From NCBI GenBank assembly GCA_965248265.1, contig CBDFJF010000001.1, positions 1,568,001 through 1,632,000 of the forward strand: 64,000 nt of DNA, in the 5' to 3' direction. Below the pieces are notes generated by a model. The model was not told the origin of the DNA and did no database searches. It was given only the letters and a program-made list of their open reading frames with translations. Positions 17,046-33,599 of this stretch are shown piece after piece. Position 1 is the stretch's first letter; each line of letters starts with the position of its first letter. The position numbers and the translations under genes are program-made. Source of the DNA: Candidatus Latescibacterota bacterium. GTDB taxonomy: Bacteria > Latescibacterota > UBA2968 > UBA8231.

Positions 17046-17060
17046 TTCCCGGCACTGTGT

Positions 17061-18501: not shown

Positions 18502-18508
18502 GTCCCGA

Positions 18509-18877: not shown

Positions 18878-18883
18878 TTTGCC

Positions 18884-19054
18884 TCAATCCCCATCACCAT
18901 TCAAGTCCGGCTCGAACTCGGTTAGCTCGATGAGCTTCATTCGGACATACGCAGACAGATTGAGCCCCAGCTTCTTGGCTTCACGCTCAAGATGCTGCTT
19001 CAGCCCTTCGTCTATCCGCAACTGGACAAAGACGTTCTTTTCAGCCACTAACAT
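18884..19054 (-). CDS. Ribbon-helix-helix (Arc/CopG-like) regulator, probable prophage repressor, 56 aa
   Basis: Manually read MLVAEKNVFVQLRIDEGLKQHLEREAKKLGLNLSAYVRMKL; divergent from the early operon. Confidence 0.8.
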   Translation of the reverse strand: MLVAEKNVFVQLRIDEGLKQHLEREAKKLGLNLSAYVRMKLIELTEFEPDLNGDGD

Positions 19055-19061
19055 ACCCCAG

Positions 19062-19091
19062 AACGTAATACTTCACTGGCCATATTGTCAA
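19062..19091 (-). promoter_or_regulatory. Leftward sigma70-type promoter of the RHH gene (likely leaderless mRNA)
   Basis: TTGACA-N18-TACGTT, with 7 nt to the ATG. Confidence 0.6.
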
Positions 19092-19119
19092 GTCCGCCCG
19101 TGTGCTTGTGAAGTTTTAC

Positions 19120-19149
19120 TTGACTTGCGTAGAGAAATGTCATACATTT
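19120..19149 (+). promoter_or_regulatory. Rightward early promoter with overlapping palindromic operator
   Basis: TTGACT-N17-TACATT; palindrome AAATGT-cat-ACATTT covers the -10. Confidence 0.7.
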
Positions 19150-19259
19150 AGGTCAGGCATAAAAAGCGGCTGGCCGGGGAATCTTTTAGCGGAGAATCCC
19201 AGCCAGCCAGTCACAATCACCTCACAGAGGGCCTTGGGGTCCTTAGGAAGGCGTTTGTA

Positions 19260-19580
19260 ATGCTGGAATCTACCACACAAACCCACCCGCAGCAAGCTGT
19301 ATCTCCATACCCGCAGTCGCACCTACCCGCACCATCAGAACCCCGGCCCGCACCATCCCGCCGAGACATCCTCAACGCCCAAGCGGCGGGACAGCTTCCG
19401 CCAACCAATCTCACCAAACATCTCGTCCTGGCTGAACTGCCAGACGACGACCCAGAGGAGCAAGATGAGGCGGTAGTGTGCAACGAGTGCGGCGATCTGT
19501 TCCTGGGCGATCTGCGAGAGAGTGAGTGCGAGTCGTGCCAGAAGGAGTACCACCTGGAGAGGGACAGACGACTGATATGA
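19260..19580 (+). CDS. Hypothetical protein with CxxC...CxxC zinc ribbon
   Basis: CNECG...CESC. Confidence 0.55.
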   Translation: MLESTTQTHPQQAVSPYPQSHLPAPSEPRPAPSRRDILNAQAAGQLPPTNLTKHLVLAELPDDDPEEQDEAVVCNECGDLFLGDLRESECESCQKEYHLERDRRLI

Positions 19581-19608
19581 ACCGAAGACTCCCCAGAAGC
19601 GAGGACAA

Positions 19609-19767
19609 GTGAATGAAGAATTTGATGTCCCATATCCGCCTCAGAAGTCAAAGCACTCACTGCGCAAGCAGCGTGCTCTTCGGCGCCGGCACATGCGCCT
19701 CTACTGGCGGGTGAGAAAGAAGAGCCGAGAGTCCAAGCAGAAGCGAGAAGACGACGACCCCTACTGA
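19609..19767 (+). CDS. 52-aa arginine/lysine-rich peptide
   Basis: Manually read GTG-start ORF with GAGG SD: ...SLRKQRALRRRHMRLYWRVRKKSRESKQKR... Confidence 0.5.
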   Translation: MNEEFDVPYPPQKSKHSLRKQRALRRRHMRLYWRVRKKSRESKQKREDDDPY

Positions 19768-19780
19768 CAGGAGAAATGAA

Positions 19781-20047
19781 ATGCCAGACACAGAGATACT
19801 CGAACTCGTTAGAAACCGCACCCATGCGACGGGAGTCCCGCTCGCCATTCTGGAGGCACTCGACGCCCCGATAAAGAGGCGGACCGTCTACGACTATCGC
19901 GTCCATCTCGGACCGGACATCACTGAACTCGCCATAGAGAAACCCTTCGAGGTGAAAGCCCAAGCGGAAGAGTTTGCGGACCTGGTAGAAGAGTGCGGAT
20001 GGCGAACTCACATCGAGAGAGAAGAGTTGGAACGATGCACGGGCTGA
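19781..20047 (+). CDS. Hypothetical phage protein
   Basis: AGGAG SD; ORF in the early operon. Confidence 0.6.
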   Translation: MPDTEILELVRNRTHATGVPLAILEALDAPIKRRTVYDYRVHLGPDITELAIEKPFEVKAQAEEFADLVEECGWRTHIEREELERCTG

Positions 20048-20147
20048 GCCGAACTGGAAGAGTTGCCCTGGTTGTCGCAAGCAGCCTCAAAATGCTGGCG
20101 TTCGGGTACATCCTCGTCAGCGCATTCATCCCCTTCATCATGGAGAT

Positions 20148-21137
20148 ATGGCCATGAATTTCCAGAAAGCACAGAAGTACGGATCTCATGGGCGCATGGC
20201 GCTCGTGGGGCCGGCGGGAGCTGGAAAGACATACACCGGACTCCGCGTACTCTCGGCTATGTGCGAGAAGATCGCTGTTGTCGACACCGAGCACGGATCT
20301 GCGTCGAAGTACGCGGACATCTTCGATTTCGATGTGCTGGAGCTGGAAAGCTTCGACCCTGCGCTCTACATCGAGGCCATTCAGTCGGCGCAGAGAGCAG
20401 GCTACGACGGACTCCTGATTGACTCTCTGTCACATGCATGGATCGGGAAGGACGGCGCCCTGGAGATGAAGGATAAGGCGTCACAGCGATCCGGCGAGAA
20501 CAGCTTCACGGCTTGGCGTCACGTCACGCCGATTCACACCCGGCTCATCGACGAGATGCTCGGTTGCAAAATGCACCTGATCGTGTCAATGCGATCGAAG
20601 ACCGAGTACGTCATCGAGGAAAACGCCAAAGGGCAGAAGGTGCCGCGCAAGATCGGACTCCAGCCAATTCAACGCGAAGGCATGGAGTTCGAGTTCGACG
20701 TGGTCGGTGACATGGACCAGATGAACGTCCTCAGCATCACAAAGTCCCGTTGCCCCGCGATGTCCGGCCAGATGTATACCAGGCCAGGAGAGGACGTGGC
20801 AGAGGTATTCAGCGCGTGGCTGGACGGAGAAGAGGCGCCGGAGAAGCCGAAGGTGAAGCCGACTGGGGATATGGGGATAGCCGGCAAGAAGCGGTTCCTG
20901 GCCAAAGTCGAGGAATGGATGGATGCGCTCGGCGACCGGTTCAACGAGATCCTCGAAAAGGATTTCGAGCTGGTAGCCGGCGACATGGCCAAGATCACCG
21001 ACAAGGAGCTGGTTGCGGAGATCCATGAAGCCATGGAAGCCGCGATCGAGGCGAAGATCGCAGTAGAAAACAACGGCGAGTCAGGCGATGACGACTTCCA
21101 CAAGCAGCTCGACAAAGAAGAAGCCCGGGCGGCATAG
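20148..21137 (+). CDS. AAA ATPase, Sak4/AAA_24-like recombination protein
   Basis: GPAGAGKT, VVDTEHGS, LIDSLSHAW and IQREGMEFEFD motifs. Confidence 0.85.
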   Translation: MAMNFQKAQKYGSHGRMALVGPAGAGKTYTGLRVLSAMCEKIAVVDTEHGSASKYADIFDFDVLELESFDPALYIEAIQSAQRAGYDGLLIDSLSHAWIGKDGALEMKDKASQRSGENSFTAWRHVTPIHTRLIDEMLGCKMHLIVSMRSKTEYVIEENAKGQKVPRKIGLQPIQREGMEFEFDVVGDMDQMNVLSITKSRCPAMSGQMYTRPGEDVAEVFSAWLDGEEAPEKPKVKPTGDMGIAGKKRFLAKVEEWMDALGDRFNEILEKDFELVAGDMAKITDKELVAEIHEAMEAAIEAKIAVENNGESGDDDFHKQLDKEEARAA

Positions 21138-22067
21138 ATGCCCGGACGTTGGATTCGCTTGGATGTGGATTGGGAAGACTCGGCCTGGCTGGATGCTCTG
21201 CCCGGAGTGGTCTCCGGATGCTGGCCACGGCTGCTTTGCCATGTGAAGCGCACTGGGGTTCGTGGTCGTTGCCGACGTCCGGATCACACCGTGATTGCGC
21301 GACGCTGGAATGTCACGCGTGACATCGTGACAGAGTTGGAGCAAGCAGCACTGGCCGACGATGCACTGCGAATTGAGAGCGGAGAATGGGTGGTCGCGAA
21401 CTGGGAAACATATCAGTTGTACGACGAAACAGGCGCTGAAAGACAGCGGAGAAGGCGCGCCAAACAGAAGAAAAACAGTAACCTACAGGAGTCACGCCGT
21501 GACGGCGTGACAGACCGTGACAGCCGTGATGTCCTGTCGCGTGACATAGACAGAGACAAAGACATAGACAGTACCCCTGTGTCTGGTAGTACTGAGGTAC
21601 CCGGTACAGAGGCGGAATCCGAAACAATCGATGGCGGCGACACACAAGTCATACACTCCCGCGATCCCACCGACGACTTCAAGCCCTCACCGAACTACAA
21701 GCCCAACGAACTGCGCGAGCTGTGGGAGGCCGAAAGGCTCCCCTTCCCTCACTCCGTCCACTGGGCGATACACGAACAAGCCTTGCACCGACTGCACTCA
21801 GAACCTCCGCACTGGTCTCGCAAGGATGTTGAGAGGGCGATCATGCGCCTCGCCGACGACAAGCGCTCGGCCCAGGACTTGGAGTGGGTTTGGCAGAAGG
21901 GGCCGCAGTATCTGGAGCAGCGGGCGAAGGGGTTGCAGGTAATCGAGCACGTCCTGAACTGGAAGTCGCATTCGCAAAAGAGCGAGCCCGGCCGCGAAAC
22001 GACGGAGGAGCGGATAGCGCGTCGTAAAAAAGAGCGCCGAGAGAAGCGCGGGAGAGACGCTGCGTGA
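21138..22067 (+). CDS. Phage replication initiator (replisome organiser-like)
   Basis: WIRLD N-terminus, NWETYQ..AERQRRRR motif, low-complexity linker with DNA iterons. Confidence 0.7.
   Translation: MPGRWIRLDVDWEDSAWLDALPGVVSGCWPRLLCHVKRTGVRGRCRRPDHTVIARRWNVTRDIVTELEQAALADDALRIESGEWVVANWETYQLYDETGAERQRRRRAKQKKNSNLQESRRDGVTDRDSRDVLSRDIDRDKDIDSTPVSGSTEVPGTEAESETIDGGDTQVIHSRDPTDDFKPSPNYKPNELRELWEAERLPFPHSVHWAIHEQALHRLHSEPPHWSRKDVERAIMRLADDKRSAQDLEWVWQKGPQYLEQRAKGLQVIEHVLNWKSHSQKSEPGRETTEERIARRKKERREKRGRDAA
21310..21549. repeat. CGTGAC iteron cluster, probable phage replication origin
   Basis: 16-bp palindrome ATGTCACGCGTGACAT (21310-21325), 21-bp palindrome GTCACGCCGT-G-ACGGCGTGAC (21491-21511), further CGTGAC copies, A-rich flanks. 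Confidence 0.65.
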
Positions 22068-22783
22068 CAATCCTGCGCGACGACGAGCAAGCCCAGGATC
22101 GCATCGAGCAGGCGCTGCTGCTGCACTATGGCCGGATGCTTGAAGACGGCTACGTCGACGATCTGCTCAAGCGTCTTGGCGGAATCGATCCAGGCGTAGT
22201 TGAGCAGGCACTCGACGAACACATCGGTGACACGTCGCCTGGCCACGGCAACCAGCCGATAGGGCATCATCCTCCTTCCGCCGCAAGACTACTGGCGCTG
22301 GTTGAGCGTCTGCAGCCAAAGCAATCCACCGACAAGGACTACCACCACGCTCAGCCGTCGGGGGAGAAGCGTCTTGTGGAGATCCCCGAGAACATGCGGC
22401 AGTACTTCCCCATCCGCGATGCGAAGAGGTTGCCAACCGGCCAATACAAGACGCACATCGAAGTCTACTCGTCGTACTGCCGGGACTGCTCCGACACCGG
22501 CATCGCTCGCTTCTTCCACTCCCGAGACCGCCGCCGCGTGTGGACCACCGAGGAGTTCTGGGAGTTGCCTGAGGCGATGAAGGATCAGCTGAACTCTGCC
22601 TCTGCTGTGTGTGATTGCAGTCGTGGCAGAAATGCTCCTGAAAGGGGGCGTTCGGTAGAGGTGTGGCACGAAGGCCGCCAGAGGCGCGTATCCACGTTCC
22701 CGCGCATGGAGCACATCCGTGAGATGGCCAAGCAGCGCATTGACGAAGACCTCGAGGTGGTGGGCAATGCAGACGCTTTCTGA
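22064..22783 (+). CDS. Putative replication accessory protein (helicase-loader-like position, Cys motifs)
   Basis: Coupled to the initiator; PPSAARL, CRDCSDTG and CDC motifs. Confidence 0.5.
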   Translation: MTILRDDEQAQDRIEQALLLHYGRMLEDGYVDDLLKRLGGIDPGVVEQALDEHIGDTSPGHGNQPIGHHPPSAARLLALVERLQPKQSTDKDYHHAQPSGEKRLVEIPENMRQYFPIRDAKRLPTGQYKTHIEVYSSYCRDCSDTGIARFFHSRDRRRVWTTEEFWELPEAMKDQLNSASAVCDCSRGRNAPERGRSVEVWHEGRQRRVSTFPRMEHIREMAKQRIDEDLEVVGNADAF

Positions 22784-22964
22784 GGGCCAACCTGTGTACT
22801 CACGCTCGCGGCCGTGGTTAAGAAACCTCGTCCTGGTTTACGGGCCGTACAGCGGCAACAGGTGGGCAGTGCAGGTAAACGGCGGCCTGTCGTGGGAGTT
22901 CGAGGGCAAAGACTTGATGCTGAAGCCAGTGAGGAAAATCAATTCCACCCAGAGGGGAACATGA
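22767..22964 (+). CDS. Small hypothetical protein
   Basis: GAGGTG SD; ATGA overlap with the next gene. Confidence 0.5.
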   Translation: MQTLSEGQPVYSRSRPWLRNLVLVYGPYSGNRWAVQVNGGLSWEFEGKDLMLKPVRKINSTQRGT

Positions 22965-23563
22965 CGATAGCGAGGTCGAGCATAGGCAGGAACGCATCAG
23001 CGCGTGTAATCCGGAAACCTGGTAAGGGGAGACAAGCAGAAGGACGTGCGGGCGAAGGGGCACCTGCCAAAAGGGGGAGGACACTTAGAACTCCTTTCGC
23101 TCGGCCTCGCATCGTGTCGGCGAGAAAGAAGCGCCGCTTTGAGGAGATGTCTCCGGAAGAGGCCAAGCAGTCGCGAGAAGGGTACATCGCCCTGTGTCTG
23201 GACATCATGCATAACGCCTTCAGCCTCGTTGAGCTGAAGTGGGAGACTCCGGAAAACCAGGAATACCAGGAGACCGTCACGTTCCTGCTCAATGACCAGT
23301 CGCCGGTTCATCAGATCCTGTTTGTCGAGCGGGAGTGTATCGAGCTCGCATTGGGGCGGATCTACAACGGCGAAGAAGTTGCCAACGGCCATGCCGGCCG
23401 CAAACGAAAGAAGGTTTCGGCAGAGCACCTCGATCGGATACTGCGAATGACGCACGGCGATCTGCAGGAAGCGGCCCAGATCCTTGGAGTGAGACCTTCT
23501 TCGATCAGGCGAATGGCTACCAGGCGCGGATTGAACCTCGATGCCTACAGAGGAGCCGCCTGA
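22961..23563 (+). CDS. Protein with C-terminal Fis-type HTH
   Basis: LRMTHGDLQEAAQILGVRPSSIRR. Confidence 0.6.
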   Translation: MTIARSSIGRNASARVIRKPGKGRQAEGRAGEGAPAKRGRTLRTPFARPRIVSARKKRRFEEMSPEEAKQSREGYIALCLDIMHNAFSLVELKWETPENQEYQETVTFLLNDQSPVHQILFVERECIELALGRIYNGEEVANGHAGRKRKKVSAEHLDRILRMTHGDLQEAAQILGVRPSSIRRMATRRGLNLDAYRGAA

Positions 23564-23564
23564 G

Positions 23565-23792
23565 ATGGACCAGGGCACTCTCATTCTCAAGGCCCTACAG
23601 CAAGGCCGGAAGCTGACACCGATGGATGCGCTGCAGGAGTTCGGGTGTTATCGCCTGGCGGCGCGCATCAACGAGCTACGGCGCGACCACGACATCAGCT
23701 CAACCATGCACACGAACCACAACGGCAAGCGGTACGCCATCTACGAGCTTGAGTTGGCCACCGATGAGAAGGGGCAAAGGGCGCTTCTATGA
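23565..23792 (+). CDS. Winged HTH phage protein
   Basis: LTPMDALQEFGCYRLAARINELR motif. Confidence 0.75.
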   Translation: MDQGTLILKALQQGRKLTPMDALQEFGCYRLAARINELRRDHDISSTMHTNHNGKRYAIYELELATDEKGQRALL

Positions 23793-24172
23793 CAACAGGC
23801 ACTTACGAGATTCCAGGCATCGGCAATCCAAAGAGGCCAAAGCATGAGGGCGCCTACGCCAGACGCTGCGCTACCAAGCAGTGCAAAGGGCTTCCGTTCA
23901 AGGCGGGGTACTGTGTCAACTGCGGGCCGACTGCGGCGATTATGAAGCTGCTCAAGGCGCTTGAGGCCGGTGCTGTGCTTCGAGCGCGGAAGGAGAAGAT
24001 CCGGACCTACGTAGTGCTGGAACCCCCTGATGGCGAGCCCCCGCAGTGCGTGAAGGAGGTCACACTGAAGGCCGCGGTGAAACGCAAGCTGCTGGTGAGC
24101 ATGGAGGGTTCGCCCGGACGCTATGGGTTCAGGTTGTCCAACAAGGCCACACAAATACTGGAGGCGAGGTGA
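23789..24172 (+). CDS. Hypothetical protein (Cys-rich N-terminus)
   Basis: Coupled ORF. Confidence 0.55.
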   Translation: MTTGTYEIPGIGNPKRPKHEGAYARRCATKQCKGLPFKAGYCVNCGPTAAIMKLLKALEAGAVLRARKEKIRTYVVLEPPDGEPPQCVKEVTLKAAVKRKLLVSMEGSPGRYGFRLSNKATQILEAR

Positions 24173-24173
24173 C

Positions 24174-24380
24174 ATGAAGAACTGGAGACGCGTCACGGCA
24201 AACAGCCTGCCGAAGTCTGGACGAGTAGTGCTCGCCTATCGCGCAGGACAGTACTTCCTGGCTTCAGTGCAGCGCAACGCCAAGGAGCAACTGAAGTGGT
24301 ACCCAGGCGGGTACGATCTCAAGAAGTTCGATTTCTGGATGCCACTACCACCAGAGCCAACGAAAGGAGCAAAGGAATGA
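24174..24380 (+). CDS. DUF551-like phage protein
   Basis: W...LP...VL...WMPLPPEP pattern. Confidence 0.7.
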   Translation: MKNWRRVTANSLPKSGRVVLAYRAGQYFLASVQRNAKEQLKWYPGGYDLKKFDFWMPLPPEPTKGAKE

Positions 24381-24922
24381 CTGCGCTACTGCAACTACCG
24401 ATCACCGAGGAACAGGAAGACGAGCTGTACTCCGAAGCTTTCGGAGACGCACTTTTTCACGGCGAAGGCGACGAGCTGCCGGAGCTGCCAACGTTCGAAG
24501 ATGAGGAGCAGGCGCAGCGATACCTGCGAGCCTACGCGCACTACCGGGAACAGTTCGACCAGGTGTCCGCACTCTTCGACGCCGAGATCGAGCGGATTGC
24601 AGCCCGACAGCAGAAGGAGCTGTCGAAGATCGAATGCCGGGTGGACTTCCTCTCGGCCTCGCTCAAGCGCTTCTACGAGGCGTCAGGAGCCAAGAGGGTT
24701 GTGCTGCCCCACGGCACTCTCTCCCAGCGCAAGCAGCCAGAGCGAGTCGTCATCGAGGACGAGACGACGTTCCTGGAGACGGCGCCGGCTGAGCTGATAA
24801 AGACGATGGCCGCCCCCGACAAAACGGCAATCAAGGAGCACATCAAAACCACCGGAGAGATTCCAACCGGTGTCGACCTGGTGCGCAACGATCCCAAGTT
24901 CACAATCACGCTGGCCGAATGA
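24377..24922 (+). CDS. Mu Gam-like / Gp157-like host-nuclease inhibitor
   Basis: Coiled coil, LPHGTLSQRK and PDKTAIK..GEIPTGV motifs. Confidence 0.75.
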   Translation: MTALLQLPITEEQEDELYSEAFGDALFHGEGDELPELPTFEDEEQAQRYLRAYAHYREQFDQVSALFDAEIERIAARQQKELSKIECRVDFLSASLKRFYEASGAKRVVLPHGTLSQRKQPERVVIEDETTFLETAPAELIKTMAAPDKTAIKEHIKTTGEIPTGVDLVRNDPKFTITLAE

Positions 24923-25203
24923 GAAGAGCAACCCGCAGAGAGAAGATCCGGATGTCGAAGATCGTTGACGACGGCTGCATCGTGTGTCGACGTGAGTTCG
25001 AGATCTACACCCCGGCGGGTGTGCACCATTGCACCCGTAGGCAGAAGCGGTCCCATGCGCGCACCATCGCGCTCTGCGACCGGCACCATCAGCACGGCGG
25101 AGAAGGCGTGGCGATTCACCCGTACTGGAAGCTGTTCGAAGAGAAGTTTGGGACAGAGGAGGAGTTGCTCGAGGCGACGAACCAGATGGTGGACTCACTA
25201 TAA
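24919..25203 (+). CDS. Ref-family HNH nuclease
   Basis: GCIVC, HH, TIALCDRHH, AIH and FEEKFGTEEELL motifs. Confidence 0.8.
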   Translation: MRRATRREKIRMSKIVDDGCIVCRREFEIYTPAGVHHCTRRQKRSHARTIALCDRHHQHGGEGVAIHPYWKLFEEKFGTEEELLEATNQMVDSL

Positions 25204-25248
25204 GAACCATTAAAACGCATTTACGCTGACGTAAACGAAGGAGGAGAA

Positions 25249-26175
25249 ATGGTACGAGAGTGCAAGACCCAAGAAGAACTCAGCGCGGCAATCGCGGAAA
25301 AGAAAAAGCACCCCGATATCGAAATCTGGCTTGTGGGCAATGCCCGATTTGAACTGGGCGGCTCCTCCCAGGTGAGAGCCTACGGCTCCTCCCAGGTGAC
25401 AGCCTACGGCTCCTCCCAGGTGACAGCCTACGACTCCTCCCAGGTGACAGCCTACGGCTCCTCCCAGGTGACAGCCTACGGCTCCTCCCAGGTGACAGCC
25501 TGCGGCTCCTCCCAGGTGACAGCCTGCGGCTCCTCCCAGGTGACAGCCTACGGCTCCTCCCAGGTGACAGCCTACGGCTCCTCCCAGGTGACAGCCTACG
25601 ACTCCTCCCAGGTGACAGCCTACGGCTCCTCCCAGGTGACAGCCTACGGCTCCTCCCAGGTGACAGCCTACGACTCCTCCCAGGTGACAGCCACTGATTG
25701 GGTCGGCGTCACCGTGCACCCCGGAGCCAAGGTCGAAGGCGGGAAGCAGATCGAGATACCGCGGCTGGATACACCGGCTCTATGGTGTGAGTTTTACGGG
25801 ATTCCTGTCGATGACGGGGTTGCAGTGATGTACAAAGCCGTCAACGACGATTTCGACAGCCCCTACGGGATGTCATACAAGCCTGGAACCGTCCCTGTGG
25901 CTCCGGATTGGGACGAAGGCAAAGCGGAATGTGGTGGCGGTATTCATGTGTCGCCGCGGCCCTTCATGGCGCTCGCATTCCACGGTGAGGCTACAAAGTT
26001 CGTCGGCTGCCCTGTGAAGCTGGAAGAGGTGGCGGTTCATCCCGATGGGCATTACCCGGAAAAGGTGAAAGCCAAGGGATGCTGCGCACCGGTGTTTGAA
26101 GTAGACATCGACGGGGAGCCGTTGCTGGGCATTCCCGATAACGGCAAAGCGTTGACTCACTACAACGCCGGTTAA
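25249..26175 (+). CDS. Phage protein with 14 octapeptide repeats (beta-solenoid-like) and C-terminal ECGGGIH domain
   Basis: (G/D)SSQVTA(Y/C) x14; strong GGAGG SD. Confidence 0.8.
   Translation: MVRECKTQEELSAAIAEKKKHPDIEIWLVGNARFELGGSSQVRAYGSSQVTAYGSSQVTAYDSSQVTAYGSSQVTAYGSSQVTACGSSQVTACGSSQVTAYGSSQVTAYGSSQVTAYDSSQVTAYGSSQVTAYGSSQVTAYDSSQVTATDWVGVTVHPGAKVEGGKQIEIPRLDTPALWCEFYGIPVDDGVAVMYKAVNDDFDSPYGMSYKPGTVPVAPDWDEGKAECGGGIHVSPRPFMALAFHGEATKFVGCPVKLEEVAVHPDGHYPEKVKAKGCCAPVFEVDIDGEPLLGIPDNGKALTHYNAG
25360..25695 (+). repeat. 14 x 24-bp coding tandem repeat GRCTCCTCCCAGGTGACAGCCTRC
   Basis: Counted directly in the DNA. Confidence 0.95.
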
Positions 26176-26181
26176 AATGAA

Positions 26182-26472
26182 TCAGCCGTGTGTTCCGCCA
26201 AGAAGCCCGTACAACCAGACTAAGACTCCTAATGCGAGCATGGCTGCCGGCCAGAGCAGGTTCGATCTCTCGCTTGCGAGCTCTCGGAATGTGGCATTCG
26301 TAAAGAAGAGGAAGCCGCTTATCGCGATCACAAATCCAGGGATGACGAAAAGAGACATGGCCCAGATGCTAAGGAGCAGCTCTCCAATCCCAACTGGCTC
26401 GTATCTCAAGAAATGACCTACACCGAGTACGAGAAGGACCGAGGCGATGCATGCAATCGCTGCAAGTTTCAT
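26182..26472 (-). CDS. Small 3-TM membrane protein, inverted relative to the early operon
   Basis: Hydrophobic 96-aa ORF between sites S2 and S3. Confidence 0.65.
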   Translation of the reverse strand: MKLAAIACIASVLLVLGVGHFLRYEPVGIGELLLSIWAMSLFVIPGFVIAISGFLFFTNATFRELASERSNLLWPAAMLALGVLVWLYGLLGGTHG

Positions 26473-26555
26473 GGATTACCTTAGCGCAGAGCTTAGATCG
26501 ATTGTGGATTGGACACCATAGACCAACGATAATGCCATTTAAAGGGAGTCAACGG

Positions 26556-26813
26556 ATGTACCTCGAAAGCACGGAAATCAGCGGAGAATTGTCGGTTGAG
26601 GAGTACCGCAACCAGATGGTGACAGCGCTTGAGCGTGATGTGCGGAGCATTGCCTACGCCATCACGGAAATACGCGACCTGTTCAAGTGCCCCGAATGCG
26701 ACGGCGCCGGAGGAGCGCGTATCACAGAAGAGCCGTCTGAGGACAACGACTTCGAGGGCTGGAGGTTCAAGGGTTGCGCCCGCTGTGACCGCAAGGGGAT
26801 TGTCCGCCCATGA
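26556..26813 (+). CDS. Hypothetical protein with CxxCxGxG zinc motifs
   Basis: CPECDGAG...CARCDRKG; SD supplied by site S3. Confidence 0.6.
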   Translation: MYLESTEISGELSVEEYRNQMVTALERDVRSIAYAITEIRDLFKCPECDGAGGARITEEPSEDNDFEGWRFKGCARCDRKGIVRP

Positions 26814-27277
26814 ACCGACAGAATGTGACCTGTGGCCCGCTTTACCGGCGTGTCCGCGAACTCTTCACCGGTGACGCCCCCGAACTCAATCGCGCCTTCG
26901 CGCAGGGATTCACGGCCGGCGAGGCTGAGAAAGTCTATCTCGGCGCCTGCAAGGCTGCCATGTTCCGCCCGACATCGTCGATTGGCCGCGAGCTGCTACG
27001 CTCCTGGGTATCAGACATTTGCGGCGTGTACGGGCTTTGCTGGACCACACTGGAGTATGTGGACCCGAGTCGTGATGGCGAGGCGGTATACGAGTTGTGG
27101 ATCTGTCGGGACAACGATGCCGTCGATGCCGTCGAGTCAACAACCGCCATCGAAGTCAACAGTCTCTCCTGGCATCACTGGCGGGGGCTGCTGACAGGTG
27201 TGGCTGATGGCGAAATCGACCTCCACTTCCACGAGCGCCAGAGCGCTGGAGACATCGACGGAACATTGGCGGACTAA
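26810..27277 (+). CDS. Hypothetical phage protein
   Basis: ATGA-coupled; stop lies inside site S4. Confidence 0.6.
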   Translation: MNRQNVTCGPLYRRVRELFTGDAPELNRAFAQGFTAGEAEKVYLGACKAAMFRPTSSIGRELLRSWVSDICGVYGLCWTTLEYVDPSRDGEAVYELWICRDNDAVDAVESTTAIEVNSLSWHHWRGLLTGVADGEIDLHFHERQSAGDIDGTLAD

Positions 27278-27306
27278 CGATAAGAAACCTACTGAGGAGT
27301 CAACGG

Positions 27307-27693
27307 ATGGGCGACGAATGGGAGAGAGCGAAGCCAACCGGGTGCCCTTTTCTGCGGTATCTCGACGCATACCCGATAGGCAACTGGGTTTCAAGGGGTG
27401 AGCCTCCATGCAGACAGAAGATTTGCGGGAAGGATAGTTGCTACCAGTACGGGCGCTCCTACAGAGACCGAGAGCGACTTCTGGTTCTCCCAGTTGGGAC
27501 GCTGATGTTCAAGCTCTCTCCAGAGCTGGGTGACGGACAAAGCAGCTCGATTGTGAAGAACATCGATCACGCCATCGAGGCGGTACGTGCGTGGATGGAG
27601 GACAGGAAGCACGGCGATGACATCGGCGAAGAATGCCAAATCGAGTGCGTGGAGATGACGGAAGCCGAGATTGCGGCTCTGCCTGAGCTATGA
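27307..27693 (+). CDS. Hypothetical phage protein
   Basis: SD supplied by site S4. Confidence 0.55.
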
Positions 27694-27971
27694 GAATCCG
27701 CCCGCTCTTTGCCTGGTACGACATCTGGATCGGAGCGTTCTGGGACAGGTCCAACCAGCGGCTCTACCTGTTCCCGTTGCCCATGATTGGGCTGAGGATT
27801 GATTTCAGAGGGGAGTCAACGATCATGGAGGACAACTGGGAAACGACGTGCCCAAACCGCGATGACGGTCAGCACTGCAACTGCTGGTATGATGGCGAGC
27901 CGTGCTGTGCCTGTGGCGATGACTGCGAAGAAGACAGGCAAGACGAAAATTGCTTTGCGGACGCACGATAA
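27690..27971 (+). CDS. Hypothetical protein, apparent fusion of two mini-genes
   Basis: Hydrophobic [13 protein letters not shown] part plus Cys-rich part, joined over a GGGAGTCAACG half-site; stop lies inside site S5. Confidence 0.55.
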
Positions 27972-28005
27972 TTCCGATTACTGGGAGTCAATCGAACGAG
28001 AGGAC

Positions 28006-28212
28006 ATGAAATCTTGCTACCTCCATTTCAGGGGGACGGCACAGCCCCCACTTGAGATCAGCGCGACGGACGCTGCCACGATCATCAGATGCAACTATGC
28101 CTCGGTGGAAGCCGTTGAGCTGATGGAGGAGCGGCTTCGCGAAGGCAAGCGAGTGTATGTCGAGAGCGGGCACATCCGCCTGCATAGCTTCACACTCATT
28201 CACAGCAATTGA
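28006..28212 (+). CDS. Hypothetical protein, paralog of 31168..31356
   Basis: LHFRG...ATDAATIIRCNYAS...MEERLREGKRVYV. Confidence 0.65.
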   Translation: MKSCYLHFRGTAQPPLEISATDAATIIRCNYASVEAVELMEERLREGKRVYVESGHIRLHSFTLIHSN

Positions 28213-28221
28213 GGAGATCCT

Positions 28222-28419
28222 ATGAGCGGGAATAGCAAGGAGCGGCGCAGGCTCAATCGCCTGACGAACGGGCTTCTTCCGAGACTCAATGAGTTGGAGG
28301 AGGAGGTGGAGTATCTACGGGAGGACACAGCGTATCTCGAAAGGGGTATTCACCAGTTCTCAGCTGGGGGTTGGTCTGTATTTTGGCGATGGCTCTGGAG
28401 TGGCTTCTCCTGGAAGTGA
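28222..28419 (+). CDS. Hypothetical coiled-coil protein
   Basis: GAGGAG SD. Confidence 0.55.
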   Translation: MSGNSKERRRLNRLTNGLLPRLNELEEEVEYLREDTAYLERGIHQFSAGGWSVFWRWLWSGFSWK

Positions 28420-29201
28420 GCTGCGCGAGTTGTGGCGATCGAGGTTTCGTGTATGTCCAGGCTGATGAGCGAGTGGGACAAGGCCACGGCCAATTGGAGA
28501 TCTGCCGGTGTGTTCGTCCTTTGTGCCGTTGCGGAGACCAGTCTCCCTACCTCTACTGGGATGAGGAGTCCGTGCGCCGCGACTGCCCCTGTAGAGCGCC
28601 TCGGCACCGGATACAGGTAGTGAACCACCTGGTCAAGATCTCGGGAGTGCCCGACCGCTATCGCTGGAAGTTCCGCACGGACTTCCTCGACGCCGAGCAG
28701 CCAGGACTGGCCGGCAAGATCCGGGCCTCGATCGCGAAGCTTGTGGACTCCCAGGAGCCGCCGAAGCAGGGCCTGTTCCTGCATGGCACACCAGGCACCG
28801 GCAAGACGCTGTTGGCCAGCATCGTGCTCAATGAGCTGATGTACTGGAGGATGAAGCGGGGTCGGTTCGTGAACCTGGCTCGATCGCTGTTTCCTCGACT
28901 TCGGCAGACAATGTCAGAGGGGTCTCAGGAGAGCGGGAAGCTCTTCCAGATCCAGGAGCGGTTGGCCACAGTCCCCTACCTGGTGATCGACGATCTGGGG
29001 GTGCAGCGCGGGACCGAGTGGGAGGAGGAGATCCTGTACGACCTGGTCGATGCGCGGTATGCGGAGCAGCAATTCACGGTAGTTACGACGAACACGCCTC
29101 TCGATGAGATCGAAGGGATCTCGCGAGGGCGGATCTACTCACGGCTCAAGGAGATGTGCCGATGGTTGAAATTGGAAGGGACGGACTGGAGATGCGAATA
29201 G
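28416..29201 (+). CDS. DnaC/IstB-like ATPase (helicase loader)
   Basis: GTPGTGKT, LVIDDLG, VTTN and RIYSRLKEM motifs; Cys-rich N-terminus. Confidence 0.85.
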   Translation: MSCASCGDRGFVYVQADERVGQGHGQLEICRCVRPLCRCGDQSPYLYWDEESVRRDCPCRAPRHRIQVVNHLVKISGVPDRYRWKFRTDFLDAEQPGLAGKIRASIAKLVDSQEPPKQGLFLHGTPGTGKTLLASIVLNELMYWRMKRGRFVNLARSLFPRLRQTMSEGSQESGKLFQIQERLATVPYLVIDDLGVQRGTEWEEEILYDLVDARYAEQQFTVVTTNTPLDEIEGISRGRIYSRLKEMCRWLKLEGTDWRCE

Positions 29202-29434
29202 CAGAACCGTCCGATCGGGGCCGTGTGGTAGCGGTCGTAATCCCCCGCTACCTCGAAGCATGGGCACTTTTGAATCCGTTGTCGAGCATGAAGACATGGA
29301 CGATAACATGCGGTAGGTGTTCCCACTCTTGGCGAGAAAAAGTCCCGCTTGTCAGGGTCTGTTCGGCTGTGTGCCCGTGCTGCAGGACGCAGAACCGATG
29401 GGAACTTATCCTTGAGGAAGACTCGGAGGCTTGA
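29192..29434 (+). CDS. Small zinc-ribbon protein
   Basis: CGRC...CPCC. Confidence 0.5.
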   Translation: MRIAEPSDRGRVVAVVIPRYLEAWALLNPLSSMKTWTITCGRCSHSWREKVPLVRVCSAVCPCCRTQNRWELILEEDSEA

Positions 29435-30267
29435 TCTCTTGCTGAGTGAGTCCTTCGAAGTACTCTGCACTGTTATCAGACTCGTCTACTATCATCACGT
29501 TCACCTCGGCCCTATCTGGCGAGACGATCAGGTAAGCCTGTCCGTGAGTTACTGGATCTGCCGCCCCGGTCTGTTTGGTACAGACACACTCCTGAGCGCG
29601 CCTCTTATTGCTGAGTGGGGCCAGGATGCGGTAGCAAACTGCTGGCGTCGGCCATGTGGGGAAAAGATTCCAAGCTGCAAATTCATCCGCGTGCAGATTC
29701 GCAGACAGACTCGCCCAAGTCCCAAAAGGTTCGGGGTGATTAGTGTCGCTGTCCAAGAAACCATCCACATATTTCATGAAAAAACGGTGTCTGCGCGCGG
29801 CTTCAGCATCAACTTTCTCGCTAAGCTCCTTCTGGGATCTCCGCTTTGCGCGAAGGTCTACCATCGTTCCCGCGACATTTTCATGGACGTCTTCTGCGCG
29901 CCTGGCTTTGTCCAACCACCCCTGTGCTTGGTCAAGAAGATCTGCACTGATGAGTGTCTTCGCCAGGTTAGACATTGCCAGCGTATTTCCAGCGTTGGCC
30001 GCCTTTTCGTAGTGCCCTATGGCGAGAGATTCCAGTCCGATCTTGTCGCAGCAGACACCCAAATTATTGATCGCCAGGTCGTAGTCGGGCCGAAAACTCA
30101 AACATTTCGTGTAGTGAAGCCGGCTGACCTCCGATTGGCCCGCGCGATAATAGGCAAAGGCTGAGGCAAAGCGAATGTCTACATCGTTCGGTGTAATCTC
30201 TAGGATCTTCTCAAGAATAAGCGCCAGAGCGCCGGAGATCTGGACGGTAACCTTGAAACCGTTGAGT
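29406..30267 (-). pseudogene. 5'-truncated TPR/Sel1-repeat protein gene, inverted
   Basis: TPR-like frame (LEKILEITPNDVDIRFASAFAY..., AINNLGVC, AMSNLA) continues upstream of 30101 with no start codon until a stop at ~30268. Confidence 0.6.
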
Positions 30268-30307
30268 CACTGTAATGCCTCAAAACGATAGTCAAAAGGT
30301 GCCAACC

Positions 30308-30550
30308 ATGGATAAAAAAAAGATGCCGTATCAGGCCCTCGTCTTTCCTGAGTTTGGGGACGGAGAATTTGCAATCCAAACAGGGCGGCGACTCGGGATG
30401 GTCAAATCGGATTACACCGACGACTGGTATATCTCATGGTCGCCTCGCAATTCAAATAACAACGCCGAGGGGGTGTGGTCAGAGTGGGTTGAGTTGGCGA
30501 ATGCAATCATTGCTGAGGATGAACGCCGCAAGGCGGATACTACCAAATAA
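30308..30550 (+). CDS. Hypothetical protein between sites S6 and S7
   Basis: Stop TAA is the end of the S7 left arm. Confidence 0.6.
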   Translation: MDKKKMPYQALVFPEFGDGEFAIQTGRRLGMVKSDYTDDWYISWSPRNSNNNAEGVWSEWVELANAIIAEDERRKADTTK

Positions 30551-30572
30551 TGCCTCTTATCGGGAGTAAGAA

Positions 30573-30725
30573 ATGTATTTCAGTTTAGAGTTTATTCAGT
30601 GCGACGGCTGCGGAGAAAGAGTAGAGGAAATGGGGGAATTGAAGTTCGGAGAAGTGCCGGATGATTGGCTCAAGGTAAGCGAACGAGAACATCACTGCCC
30701 CGAGTGTAAAACAGAGACTGACTAA
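30573..30725 (+). CDS. 50-aa zinc-ribbon protein between sites S7 and S8
   Basis: Manually read MYFSLEFIQCDGCG...HHCPECKTETD; SD from S7, stop in S8. Confidence 0.6.
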   Translation: MYFSLEFIQCDGCGERVEEMGELKFGEVPDDWLKVSEREHHCPECKTETD

Positions 30726-30754
30726 CGATAATCCTCGTACTACGGAGTAGATGA

Positions 30755-31171
30755 ATGAGTGAACTGCCCTACGCTGAGGACGTGAACTACTGGAAGACAG
30801 GATCGTCGTCCCCGGACTCATGGATCGCGAAGGCGATAAAGCAGATCGAGGACGTGGGCGGCGAGATCACGGCAGAGGGCTTTGGTCGCGCGGCTGGACA
30901 CTCGGCCTACATGCTGGGCTTTGTGTTCGACCAGGAGGCGTTCAAGATCACCTGGCCTGTACTGGAGTCGCACAAGGGCGAGGAAATGGCCGCGCGCCGG
31001 CAGGCGGCGACGTTTCTCTATCACGACGTGAAGGCACGGTGCATGGTGGTGAAGATCAAAACGCCGAGGGTGGCGTTTTTCGAGTACCTGCAGCTGCCAG
31101 ACGGCCGGTCCGCTGGGCAGCTGGCAAACCCCGAGCTGTTGGCCAATGTGCCGAAGATGCTGACAACATGA
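30755..31171 (+). CDS. Conserved-looking hypothetical phage protein
   Basis: SD supplied by S8; RRQAA..LYHDVKAR and AFFEYL.LPDGR patterns. Confidence 0.65.
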   Translation: MSELPYAEDVNYWKTGSSSPDSWIAKAIKQIEDVGGEITAEGFGRAAGHSAYMLGFVFDQEAFKITWPVLESHKGEEMAARRQAATFLYHDVKARCMVVKIKTPRVAFFEYLQLPDGRSAGQLANPELLANVPKMLTT

Positions 31172-31356
31172 ACTACATCCTCCACTTCAAGGGGCCACCG
31201 CAGCCGGCAGAGCAGGTCAACGCCACTGACGCGGCCAAGATCATCCGCAGCAACTTCGCCTCCAGGGAGGAGATCAAGGTGATGGAGGAGCGACTACAGG
31301 CAGGAAAACGAGTCTACGTCCGCAACGGGTATTTGCGGCGTGGGGATCTGAACTGA
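31168..31356 (+). CDS. Hypothetical protein, paralog of 28006..28212
   Basis: LHFKG...ATDAAKIIRSNFAS...MEERLQAGKRVYV. Confidence 0.65.
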   Translation: MNYILHFKGPPQPAEQVNATDAAKIIRSNFASREEIKVMEERLQAGKRVYVRNGYLRRGDLN

Positions 31357-31368
31357 AAGGAGGAGCAC

Positions 31369-31539
31369 ATGCCCAAGTATCACACCACAAAGCAAGTTGC
31401 CGACATGCTCGAGGTGACCGATCGGTACGTTCGGAAGATGGTGATCGAGAAGAAGCTGACTGCGTTCAGGCTCGGCCACCGGGTGCGCATACCTACCGAA
31501 GCAGTTGAGAAATTCATGCGAGAGCGCAAGATCGCATGA
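31369..31539 (+). CDS. xis: Excisionase (HTH_17/MerR-like)
   Basis: Manually read MPKYHTTKQVADMLEVTDRYVRKMV...AFRLGHRVRIP; AGGAGG SD; overlaps the integrase start. Confidence 0.85.
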   Translation: MPKYHTTKQVADMLEVTDRYVRKMVIEKKLTAFRLGHRVRIPTEAVEKFMRERKIA

Positions 31540-32696
31540 AAGGGAGCATAACCCGGCGCCAACTCAAGGGCGGCCTGCAGTACTACATCGTCTACGACGC
31601 TGGCCGGAAGTGGTCGTCGAAAAAGCAGAAAACCGTTCGTAATCAGCAATGGGAGCGTGTCGAGCCAAACACTCGGACGGCTGCACAGAAGCTGCTCAAC
31701 ATCCGCCTGGCGGAAGTCCAACGGGGCGAATGGCAGGGTAAGCAGAGCATCGGTTTCACCGAGCTCACCCAGTCATGGATGGAGAAGGACGCACGGCCGC
31801 GACTCAAGCCACAATCGCTGGACCGCTACCAACAATTCCTCCGGCTGCACATCCTGCCCGTCCTCGGCCAGTACCAGGCGCACGAGATTGACCTTGAGAT
31901 TCTACAGGGGTTTACTGCGGTGTTGCTACAGGAGCTCTCGGTGTCTCACGTCAAATCAATCGTGGCTGTCACGAGAGCCATCCTGCGCAAGGGGTACGAA
32001 TGGGGATACGTCAAAGCCAACCCGGCTGACATGCGCATTTCCTACCCGCGTCACACGCCGAAGAAGATCGATCCGCTGACTCCCGAGGAAATCCACGCTC
32101 TGCTGGCCCAAGCGTCCCAGAAGTGGTGTGCAGTCCTCGTAGTGGCGATCTGGACCGGTTTGCGCGTGGGCGAGATCCAGGCCATGAAGTGGAACAATCT
32201 TGATTGGAAGGCTTCGGAGTACTATGTGGAGGAGAACCTGACTCGACGGCGGGGGTTCGGAGATCCCAAGACGCCGTCAGCAGCCTCCTCGGTGCTTCTG
32301 TCGCCCTTCGTCATCGATACCCTGCGACAGCACAAACAGCGTCAGGCAGCGCTCAAACTGGCTCAGGGAAGTGATTACAAGGACGCAGGATTTATCTTCA
32401 CAACCGATCAGGGCGGGCCCTATGGCTACAATCAGATCACCAAATGGGGCCTGGAACGCACGCTCGAAGACGCCGGTCTGCGCCGCATCACATTCCACCA
32501 GCTACGCCACACCTGTGCCTCGCTGCTGATCTCCAAAGGAGCCAACATCAAGTCAGTGCAGAGGCAGCTGCGGCACGCCACCATCAAGCAGACGCTCGAT
32601 ACCTACGCCCATCTGTACCCGGACGATCACGCCGAAGCGGTACGGGCAATGGACAGCTATGTATGGGGGAAGGCCGCTCAGCTAACAAATATCTAA
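31536..32696 (+). CDS. int: Tyrosine recombinase, prophage integrase
   Basis: TGLRVGEI, PKT, FHQLRHT and RH...TLDTYAH catalytic motifs; N-terminal arm-binding-type domain. Confidence 0.95.
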   Translation: MKGSITRRQLKGGLQYYIVYDAGRKWSSKKQKTVRNQQWERVEPNTRTAAQKLLNIRLAEVQRGEWQGKQSIGFTELTQSWMEKDARPRLKPQSLDRYQQFLRLHILPVLGQYQAHEIDLEILQGFTAVLLQELSVSHVKSIVAVTRAILRKGYEWGYVKANPADMRISYPRHTPKKIDPLTPEEIHALLAQASQKWCAVLVVAIWTGLRVGEIQAMKWNNLDWKASEYYVEENLTRRRGFGDPKTPSAASSVLLSPFVIDTLRQHKQRQAALKLAQGSDYKDAGFIFTTDQGGPYGYNQITKWGLERTLEDAGLRRITFHQLRHTCASLLISKGANIKSVQRQLRHATIKQTLDTYAHLYPDDHAEAVRAMDSYVWGKAAQLTNI

Positions 32697-32831
32697 CAAG
32701 TTCCGCAAAACGACTACCTGTTCATACCAACAGAGGAACAGGCGACATGAAAACCTCAGAGAGAAATGTCACAGGTTCCGCAATCATACGCTCTATTCAT
32801 ACCCCGACAGTAGGTCCGTTTCTGTCTCATC

Positions 32832-32860
32832 TTGACTGTCTCCTAGGCTCCATGTACACT
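32832..32860 (+). promoter_or_regulatory. Host sigma70-type promoter
   Basis: TTGACT-N17-TACACT, 40 nt upstream of the ATG at 32901. Confidence 0.6.
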
Positions 32861-32900
32861 CGCGCACTAGAAATCTATACCACTCAAGGAGAGGACTCCA

Positions 32901-33599
32901 ATGCGCGTACTAGTGACCGGCTCGGCCGGCAACATCGGACAACACCTGATAACCCACCTCAAGGACAAGCACGAGTTCCGCGGCCTGGACGTGAATCCCA
33001 CAGCCCAGCTCGACGACTACGTGGTCGCCAACGTCAACGACTGGGAGGCCGTCAACCATGCCTCCACAGACATGGATGCGACCATCCACTTGAGCAACTG
33101 TGGTGGGCAGTGGGAGCAGGCACTGCAGTCGATGATCGGTACCCGCCACGTGTTTGAGGCGGCCTTGGAGCACGGGGGCAAGCGCATCGTCTTCGCCAGC
33201 CGTGGCGGCGTCCATCCATCAGCCGTCATTCCGCGCAGCGTCACCCGCACGGCCGACCTGCTGACCCACCCTGACAGTTACTACACCATCACCAAGGTCT
33301 TCGGGGAAGCCATGGGCGACATGTTCTCGTCCAAGCACGGATTCGGCGTCGTCTCGGTCCGTATCGGCAACTTCAACAAGGACCGGCCGGAGCCGGAACA
33401 CCCCCATCAGTTGGGTCACGACGACTGCGTTCGGCTCTTCGATGCGGCGTTGACGGCCAAAGACATCGGCCACGAGCGCGTGTTCGGCGTCTCGGACAGC
33501 AACTGGCCCTTGTATGACATCGAACACGGCCGCAAGGCCATCGGCTACGATCCGCAGCAACGCTCTGAGGTCGCTCAGGACGTCATCGACGCCGGCTAG
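32901..33599 (+). CDS. NAD-dependent epimerase/dehydratase (uronate dehydrogenase-like)
   Basis: VTGSAGNIG, YTITKVFGE and VRIG motifs. Confidence 0.85.
   Translation: MRVLVTGSAGNIGQHLITHLKDKHEFRGLDVNPTAQLDDYVVANVNDWEAVNHASTDMDATIHLSNCGGQWEQALQSMIGTRHVFEAALEHGGKRIVFASRGGVHPSAVIPRSVTRTADLLTHPDSYYTITKVFGEAMGDMFSSKHGFGVVSVRIGNFNKDRPEPEHPHQLGHDDCVRLFDAALTAKDIGHERVFGVSDSNWPLYDIEHGRKAIGYDPQQRSEVAQDVIDAG

Follow-up and report, generated by a model that had tools for sequence, protein, structure and literature searches.

Candidate Xer-type recombination sites between the small early genes of a Latescibacterota prophage

Small gene modules bounded by copies of a chromosomal Xer site are known from Acinetobacter plasmids, where the modules are termed dif modules and the sites pdif (PMC13141974, PMC6449649, PMC7399989). 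In the portions of that work available here, a pdif site consists of 11 bp, a 6-bp spacer and a further 11 bp, with the inner ends ...ATAA and TTAT...; crossovers map to pdif sites whose spacers are identical or almost so, and excision requires direct orientation as well as high spacer identity (PMC13141974). Related in kind are the integrative mobile elements exploiting Xer (IMEX), such as CTX-phi and TLC-phi, which, in the extracts available, carry one attachment site and insert as a whole at the chromosomal dif (PMC9226527, PMC3089051). The present text concerns a stretch of 64,000 nucleotides (nt) from a Candidatus Latescibacterota genome (C1:1568001-1632000; 7.32 Mb in two contigs, C1 and C2), termed the window below, in which an integrated tailed phage carries eight 30-bp sites, S1 to S8, in the distal, accessory part of its early operon. 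These are most likely phage-borne copies of the dif-type site of the host, i.e. core-type sites of an Xer-family tyrosine recombinase. The reading favoured here, at a probability of roughly 0.55, is that they are Xer-type recombination sites that bound gene cassettes in the prophage, and that the crossover falls between an arm with a stop codon and an arm with a Shine-Dalgarno (SD) sequence.

How does this locus compare? In common with the Acinetobacter modules, as far as the available portions of those papers go, it has small gene modules bounded by apparent copies of a chromosomal Xer site with inner ATAA/TTAT, a module (S2-S3) that recurs in different contexts, with putative crossovers in sites, and a putative exchange tied to identical or nearly identical spacers. 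It differs in its carriers, which are a tailed prophage and chromosomal islands and not Rep_3 plasmids, and in the orientation of the sites, which are all direct repeats and do not alternate as C/D and D/C (PMC13141974). It also differs in its reference site, which is nearly palindromic and linked to one recombinase gene, whereas Acinetobacter has distinct XerC and XerD arms, and in arms that double as stop codon and SD; movement is read here from sequence. With CTX-phi and TLC-phi, again on partial sources (PMC9226527, PMC3089051), the locus shares phage-borne dif-like sites that have one good and one relaxed arm, and a use of host Xer is proposed here. Unlike those elements, it has eight sites in a single tailed prophage with its own integrase, and none of the eight has the chromosomal centre (CAAGAA/TTCTTG). 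Set beside the Acinetobacter dif modules, what would be new are Xer-bounded cassettes in a tailed prophage, a reading put at slightly better than even odds. No Xer-site-bounded gene modules in tailed phages were found in the literature surveyed, part of which was available as extracts.

The sites, their copies and a chromosomal reference site

The eight sites share the + strand and fit a single gapless alignment of arm (12 bp), centre (6 bp) and arm (12 bp). S1 (25192..25221) has the left arm GACTCACTATAA, the centre GAACCA and a degenerate right arm. S2 (26154..26183; centre CGCCGG) forms the left boundary of blocks common to the window and two other loci, and its right arm is abutted by the stop of a minus-strand open reading frame (ORF), 26182-26472; S3 (26521..26550; centre TGCCAT) forms the right boundary of the 404-bp S2-S3 module. 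S4 (27272..27301) has the centre GAAACC, and S5 (27960..27989) has TTCCGA, the same as in three sites elsewhere with unrelated flanks. S6 (30264..30293) and S7 (30539..30568) have the identical centre TGCCTC; both arms of S6 are weak, and S7 combines a weak left arm with a canonical right arm, TTATCGGGAGTA, that matches nine of nine half-site positions. S8 (30720..30749) has the centre TCCTCG. A matrix made from the eight sites scores them at 23.9-37.3 bits, the best other window position being at 8.3. The leave-one-out scores from S1 to S8 are 19.2, 22.1, 27.9, 21.2, 21.5, 13.1, 3.8 and 20.9, so S7 and S6 are weak members. A right-arm-only remnant is found at 27788..27819 (+ strand), with exact GGAGTCAA at 27812-27819, inside ORF 27690-27971; an in-frame ATG follows at 27825, 5 nt behind. 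As the remnant has no recognisable left arm or stop, two small ORFs were apparently fused to give 27690-27971.

Across the genome, 106 positions reach at least 14 bits with the eight-site matrix. One group of these has the same build as the window sites and is arrayed between small ORFs. An array at C1:27.4-30.0 kb is in a second early region that is phage-like and encodes CII-like, AAA_22 and DUF3102 proteins; further arrays are at C1:675.8-677.9 kb, C1:786.8-787.6 kb and C2:3430.6-3431.5 kb, and there are a few single sites. In every array the sites are all direct repeats. The prophage with the C2 array shares no more than 28-49% protein identity with the window prophage; it has four sites, one of them at 40 bits, and the site is better kept than the proteins that surround it. 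A 24-bp pattern of the site occurs 15 times in this genome and its reversed control not once.

The genome comparison set consists of 26 distinct sites that align as a gapless 12+6+12, and the counts given below per 26 sites refer to it. The left arm is well kept, with the consensus GACTnACGATAA, and always terminates in TAA; the right arm, TTAnnGGGAGTC, is relaxed. A2, C7, A9, T10, A11, A12, T19, G26, A27 and T29 are each at least 90% conserved, and the conserved dyad positions are 1-4/27-30, 7/24 and 10-12/19-21. The initial annotation of this DNA had considered that its motif would be a coincidence of stop and SD if TAA and GGAG alone were conserved. Because ten arm positions are conserved and the 6-bp spacing is fixed, the motif is more than TAA plus GGAG.

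Where could such sites come from? Perfectly palindromic versions of the motif exist, and in genomes of the family a full 30-bp palindrome has a fixed neighbourhood, that is, the 3' end of mutL, the site, and a gene for a tyrosine recombinase of ~330 amino acids (aa). In the present genome the candidate chromosomal dif site is a near-perfect 12-6-12 palindrome at C2:3484646-3484675 (locus C2:3483356-3486617), between mutL and the gene for a 345-aa tyrosine recombinase (C2:3483356-3484390), and in this genome it is 1.7 kb from the global cumulative G-C maximum (position 3,486,365 of the 4,141,828-bp contig C2). Placement at the skew switch, a build of arm, 6-bp centre and arm, and linkage to an Xer-like gene are the marks of a dif-type site. 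Of 76 genomes of the family, 60 yielded the linked recombinase, at 54-74% identity. Thirty recombinase loci were retrieved, and in 25 of them the best site has at least 17.5 bits; it is 97-315 nt upstream of the recombinase gene in 24 of these and 875 nt upstream in one, and mutL adjoins in 28 of the 30. CGATAA-N6-TTATCG is present in 40 of the 76 family genomes (~70 sites by tally), its reversed control in only four. Rfam and tRNA scans of the chromosomal site loci gave no match. The mutL-adjacent palindrome is a dif-type site and its linkage with the recombinase is old; the pair is a candidate dif site and linked recombinase for a Candidatus Latescibacterota family, and neither was found in published form for this family in the literature surveyed, as far as the available parts of it extend. 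Two further features of the family can be recorded. The linked recombinase is more conserved than MutL (54-74% versus 31-55% identity), and arm positions 5-6 vary between species, mostly in step on both arms (AA/TT, CC/GG, AC/GT).

The 345-aa protein scores 119.5 bits with XerC, 114.6 with XerD and 100.7 with archaeal XerA, all under the curated cut-offs, and 69.5 bits with the XerS model, whose cut-off is 267. Its nearest relatives among solved recombinases are XerD, a transposon integrase and an XerC-like (archaeal) protein. Two further Xer-like genes in the genome have higher XerC/XerD scores (193.8 and 267.6 bits), which are also under cut-off. Linkage of a recombinase gene to its site has a precedent in XerS (PMC2731167). 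In the parts of the sources available, XerS/difSL and XerH/difH likewise have an Xer-like gene in linkage with a dif-like motif near the GC-skew terminus (PMC2731167, PMC5357621); unlike them, the recombinase here is below the cut-offs for XerS, XerC, XerD and XerA, and the genome has two more Xer-like genes. What is compared here is the chromosomal reference site and not the phage array.

The likeness of the phage sites to the chromosomal site was assessed with an independent matrix, a palindromic half-site made from six mutL-adjacent sites of other genomes, with no phage sites and with the centre ignored. Its best match genome-wide is the candidate dif site at C2:3484646-3484675 (41.5 bits). 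In the window its first seven matches are S8, S3, S5, S4, S7, S2 and S6, and S1 is the 15th, with scores of 15.4 bits for S8, 14.9 for S3, 12.2 for S5, 9.5 for S4, 6.5 for S7, -3.9 for S6 and -8.1 for S1. The left arms match a mean of 8.0 of the nine conserved half-site positions, and the right arms 6.3 of nine. One good and one relaxed arm are typical of plasmid and phage Xer sites.

Signs of exchange

Have the sites taken part in exchange? A block of 4062 bp (26164..30225, + strand) is 100% identical to C1:28234-32295 in the second phage-like element, and its left end is inside S2, 4 nt before the centre. The S2-S3 module (26155..26558, + strand), which contains one minus-strand 96-aa ORF and has both ends in sites, is found in three contexts, namely the window, C1:28227-28628 and C1:675820-676223 (98.5-99.3% identical; 98.5% between window 26155-26558 and C1:675820-676223). 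S2 and the sites at C1:28224 and C1:675819 have the centre, right arm and downstream DNA in common, together with three different left arms and unrelated upstream genes. The reverse is seen with S3 and C1:676186, where upstream DNA, left arm and centre are common and the right arm and downstream DNA diverge. Four blocks of several hundred bp or more are shared between array regions at an identity of at least 86%, and six of their eight ends are within 22 nt of a site centre; the eight ends are not independent and represent about five underlying events, four of them at sites.

Short-read contigs from the same sample as the genome, which are not independent of it, break at 26164, 26511/26540 and 30225, with depths in run X1 of 16.3, 43.3, 28.4 and 13.7. 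The contig 26164-26540 is at ~3x depth, and depth is ~2x over the 4062-bp block. Copy numbers of one, three, two and one match these depths; the repeat structure is therefore no artefact of assembly.

The 6-bp centres fall into classes. Identical centres are found in 17 of the 325 pairs of the 26 sites, compared with 0.85 expected and a maximum of six in 2000 column shuffles. TTCCGA and CCCTCG recur in four sites each, CGCCGG in three, and TGCCAT and TGCCTC in two each. The flanks are unrelated on both sides in 12 of the 17 same-centre pairs (six of six with TTCCGA, five of six with CCCTCG, and S6-S7). Within each array all centres differ, with S6 and S7 the sole exception: these flank a single ORF and have the common centre TGCCTC and different arms, a pattern to be expected after a circle with one site inserts into a resident site.

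Tyrosine recombinases exchange strands at the borders of the centre. In the mechanism proposed, a recombinase of the host would bring together two sites with one and the same 6-bp centre, located either on two co-resident elements or on an element and a circle, and strand exchange would take place at the borders of that centre. The likeliest enzyme would be the 345-aa Xer-like protein encoded beside the chromosomal site, with one of the two other Xer-like proteins as an alternative. If exchange does take place there, the unit from centre to centre consists of an SD arm, an ORF and a stop arm, and since the crossover would fall between the TAA arm and the GGAG arm, each ORF would travel with its own SD and stop. 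A relocated ORF could then be readable from the read-through early transcript wherever it was inserted. Single genes are probably swappable between phages via these sites, recombination itself being deduced from sequence comparison.

Translation signals and competing explanations

The initial annotation had described the sites as doubling as translation signals, with a stop codon in the left arm and an SD in the right, and the sequence facts that it gave are right. A TAA at site positions 10-12 ends the ORFs 24919-25203 (S1), 27690-27971 (S5) and 30275-30550 (S7), and one at positions 4-6 ends 26810-27277 (S4) and 30573-30725 (S8); the ORF that ends at 26175 takes its stop from the right arm of S2 (TAA at positions 20-22), as had been claimed. 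Five of these six ORFs enter the sites in one frame, so that the arm dictates their last one to four codons. GGAG, also as claimed, forms positions 25-28 in the right arms of S3, S4, S7 and S8, at distances of 7, 7, 6 and 7 nt from the ATGs at 26556, 27307, 30573 and 30755. S2 is followed by a minus-strand gene, no + strand ORF ends before S3 or S6, and the next ATG behind S5 (28006) has an SD-like stretch of its own. In the set of 26 sites, 16 contain the stop of an ORF that lies upstream and has 30 aa or more, 16 have GGAG in the right arm, and 11 have a start codon at positions 33-36, nine of these being ATG. Since chromosomal sites of the family show both arm flavours, …CGTTAGT and …CGGGAGT, the GGAG-bearing arm is a legitimate one. 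The GGAG flavour, i.e. CC at half-site positions 5-6, is found in 16 of 26 right arms and 6 of 26 left arms (Fisher p = 0.011), and is thus enriched on the gene-proximal side of the phage sites.

The interpretation built on these facts is partly supported. It had been proposed that any promoterless ORF placed between two sites obtains a ribosome-binding site and a stop, a plug-and-play design. Xer-type sites lend support to a mechanism of this kind, but a stop or an SD is provided by only about half of the sites. The notion of cassettes is strengthened by the dif likeness, the block ends and the shared centre classes; the sites are, however, not attC. Like an integron, the locus has promoterless-looking ORFs arrayed one way and separated by tyrosine recombinase sites, the crossover would be at the cassette boundary, and an upstream transcript would serve for expression. 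The attC sites of integrons are longer and structured, imperfect palindromes that are recombined as folded single strands, whereas the sites here have 30 bp, and their arms pair no better than shuffled ones. The window array adjoins no IntI, attI or Pc, and no match in the genome to TIGR02249 reaches the cut-off, the best having 239.6 of 265 bits (C1:1754213-1755118, ~155 kb from the array). The IntI-like gene at that locus (C1:1754213-1757500; L279:3213-6500) is followed by small toxin-antitoxin-like ORFs (NadS/MqsA-type helix-turn-helix), which are separated by attC-like imperfect palindromes of ~100 nt, built differently from the 30-bp sites. The locus is a probable chromosomal integron and distinct from those sites.

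Could the sites be something other than recombination sites? In the classical linker model of phage mosaicism they would be a conserved intercistronic linker, kept for stop, spacing and SD and reshuffled by homologous recombination, with no site-specific recombinase. The translation signals of the 26 sites, namely stops in 16, starts at positions 33-36 in 11 and GGAG in 16 right arms, suit this model, as does the enrichment of the GGAG flavour in right arms (16 versus 6, p = 0.011). Homologous exchange would place block ends in sites as well, and the prophage encodes Gam and a Sak4-like AAA_24 protein. The linker leaves unexplained, however, why the motif is identical to a palindrome at the GC-skew peak beside a recombinase gene, why A2, C7, A9, T19, A27 and T29, which belong to neither SD nor stop, are conserved, why S2, S3 and S6 do without one or both translation roles, and why sites with differing arms have identical centres. 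It is regarded as unlikely.

Another possibility is an operator or roadblock, at which a dimeric protein (an Xer-like protein that does not exchange strands, or a phage regulator) binds the dyads and regulates or stops early transcription, similar to the stoperators of cluster A mycobacteriophages. The dyad symmetry is based on conserved positions and not on base pairing, the sites have a single orientation relative to transcription, and the prophage encodes several helix-turn-helix proteins, all of which fit an operator. The motif is nevertheless also found in elements that share almost no proteins and on chromosomes of other genera, which makes a phage-specific regulator unlikely, and regulation predicts neither common 6-bp centres nor block ends inside sites. 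The chance given to an operator is accordingly a slender one. The start-associated sequences and stoperators of mycobacteriophages are repeats of 13-17 bp, tied to repressor binding or translation. They resemble the present sites in being short, in one orientation, in tiny intergenic gaps and overlapping stops or ribosome-binding sites, and differ in being unrelated to a chromosomal recombination site; to our knowledge they have no link to dif or Xer.

Far less probable is an RNA element, in which the arms would pair in the mRNA and hide the SD until a ribosome terminating at the TAA opens the hairpin, or would mark a site of RNase cleavage. A stop in one arm and an SD in the other would suit such a role, and some copies could fold strongly (C1:786781 has 11 of 12 complementary arm positions). 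Yet in the window arm complementarity is merely 5-8 of 12. Pairing in 25 distinct sites extends to 60.0% of cells; the shuffles give 62.0%, and 487 of 500 reach or exceed the observed value. The covariation score is 0.046, compared with 0.056 in shuffles, and the chromosomal loci match no Rfam family. With no covariation, and pairing no higher than in shuffles, an RNA or DNA hairpin is not the conserved feature.

Chance similarity of AT-rich intergenic stretches that contain TAA and GGAG in a GC-rich genome would suit the short pieces of the motif, which by themselves show no enrichment in the window (GGAGTCAA with one mismatch, 59 matches versus 53.4 expected; GACTNACNATAA with two, 24 versus 23.7), but is already refuted, since the full 30-bp matrix sets the sites more than 15 bits above all else in the window, the independent matrix finds them, and the 24-bp pattern, with its 15 copies here, has no more than one match in any of the 167 other genomes of the phylum.

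Promoter readings of the sites were tried and rejected. In 17000-33000 there are five sigma-70 promoter-like matches (16-18 nt spacing; 5.1 expected), none in a site. S1 has a likeness to a T7-type promoter core, and a scan of 42 window ORFs gave no single-subunit RNA polymerase. For readings of CGATAA as a -10 element of the extracytoplasmic function (ECF) type or sigma-28 type, a by-eye comparison found no conserved -35 upstream of the phage sites.

To return to Xer-type sites that bound cassettes, several observations weigh against this reading. With the independent matrix only S8, S3 and S5 exceed the maximum of 100 shuffles (11.3), S1, S2 and S6 are below 0, and the right arms are weak. 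S1, S5 and S6 give no SD to the next gene, which has its own SD-like stretch further downstream. The sites are all directly repeated, whereas in dif modules the pdif sites alternate. The 4062-bp block has its right end (30225) within a truncated TPR gene, 39 nt upstream of S6, so that one of the five inferred exchange events ends outside a site, and identical block ends are also expected from homologous recombination across a conserved 30-bp stretch. Left arms are hardly more alike in same-centre pairs than in other pairs (9.65 versus 9.05 of 12), but right arms are (9.94 versus 7.60), and centre sharing may therefore be partly descent of centre plus right arm. No joint of an excised or deleted form is present among the same-sample contigs, which drop rare variants. 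The candidate recombinases are three Xer-like proteins and the phage integrase, and that any of them binds or cuts the sites is a prediction.

All arrays, moreover, come from one genome and one sample. None was found in the 167 other genomes of the phylum, where the 24-bp pattern is as rare as stated above, or in IMG/VR, where pattern scans gave single chance-like matches (among the matches listed), none, and one. Of the 119 IMG/VR loci listed, four had two matrix matches of at least 14 bits and none had more; IMG/VR protein scans gave no relative of the DnaC-like protein and only AT-rich, distant Gam relatives that have no sites. A metagenome scan gave four single matches and no array.

The wider setting and its meaning

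The integrated phage occupies the window up to ~32.7 kb. Its small and large terminase and major head protein are encoded on the minus strand, as is a CI-like repressor (17333-18145). The rightward early operon (+ strand) encodes an AAA_24/Sak4-like protein, a Gam-like protein (24296-24922), a Ref-like nuclease (24919-25203) and the 8-aa repeat protein of ORF 25249-26175 (phrog_15773). The ORFs between and beside the sites, from 24919 to 31171, can probably be read as cassettes. Between S2 and S3 there is the 96-aa ORF 26182-26472 (minus strand), between S3 and S4 the ORFs 26556-26813 and 26810-27277 (+), and between S4 and S5 27307-27693 and 27690-27971 (+). The interval from S5 to S6 has 28006-28212 and 28222-28419 (+), a DnaC-like loader (28371-29201, +) and a truncated TPR ORF of 231 aa (29406-30101, minus). 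ORF 30275-30550 (+; possible starts 30275, 30299 and 30309) is between S6 and S7, 30573-30725 (+) between S7 and S8, and 30755-31171 (+) downstream of S8. At the right end of the prophage are an excisionase-like helix-turn-helix protein (31369-31539, +) and a tyrosine integrase (31536-32696, +); these two genes, 31369-32696, are given as context, and any action of theirs on the sites would be hypothetical.

Some of these ORFs have features of their own. ORF 25249-26175 contains ~14 tandem 24-nt units at 25330-25690, which encode the 8-aa repeat GSSQVTAY, and the short-read contigs fragment at them. The second element has a 560-aa gene (L137:17476-19158) of which the minus-strand TPR ORF is a truncated copy, and the identity between the two elements ends inside the TPR gene (window 29406-30225). 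The small ORFs 28006-28212 and 31168-31356 are paralogous, with 58% identity across 53 aa in a tblastn comparison with the other copy of the 4-kb block; the former is behind S5, and the latter, right before the excisionase gene, has no site. Contigs of three runs match window 28132-29022 at 97% or more and at either end continue into dissimilar sequence; the sample contains another variant or relative with this 0.9-kb piece, and the breakpoints are not at sites.

A second class of ~40 dif-like sites in the genome, each with one canonical and one degenerate arm (…TTATAACCACTA or …TTATCCTCACTA), is a separate observation; promoters and transposon ends were considered for it, and it was set apart from the cassette sites. 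Examples are C2:1134275-1156262 (seven near-identical sites), C2:2696852-2800253 and C2:944468-944593. These sites have ~70-100 conserved bases before them and diverse genes after them, many of which encode signal peptides; some are behind the 3' end of IS91-type (Y2 transposase) genes, and one pair forms a 126-bp back-to-back unit. In its arrangement the class resembles a module system spread across the chromosome or a promoter-like element that is mobile.

Dif-like sites were also seen elsewhere. A 1618-bp metagenome contig from another sample (L160:355-384; 63% GC) has a 39-bit site 9 nt after the stop of ssb. In a genome from another genus of the family (G128; L153:1501-1838, L175), two dif-like sites with mutually inverted centres, TATCCC/GGGATA, flank ~280 bp between two genes for secreted proteins, and the second site has GGAG 7 nt before an ATG. 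From its sequence this could possibly be an invertible segment; similar sequences are present in G132, G147 and G149.

What would these sites mean for the phages and their host? Breakpoints in phage mosaics are usually ascribed to rare illegitimate or short-homology events, followed by selection. The broader proposal, tentative and put a little short of even odds, is of an Xer-driven, integron-like system in tailed prophages and chromosomal islands of an uncultured bacterium of the Latescibacterota, in which one site would serve both as recombination target and as complete intercistronic junction. Co-resident phages would trade single accessory genes that are expressed wherever they land, and differing centres would stabilise the arrays and define the partners. 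If true, there would be a dedicated, site-specific route for swaps of single accessory genes between tailed phages, run by the host's machinery for chromosome-dimer resolution, and the overlap with translation signals would compactly solve the expression of a promoterless gene after its transfer.

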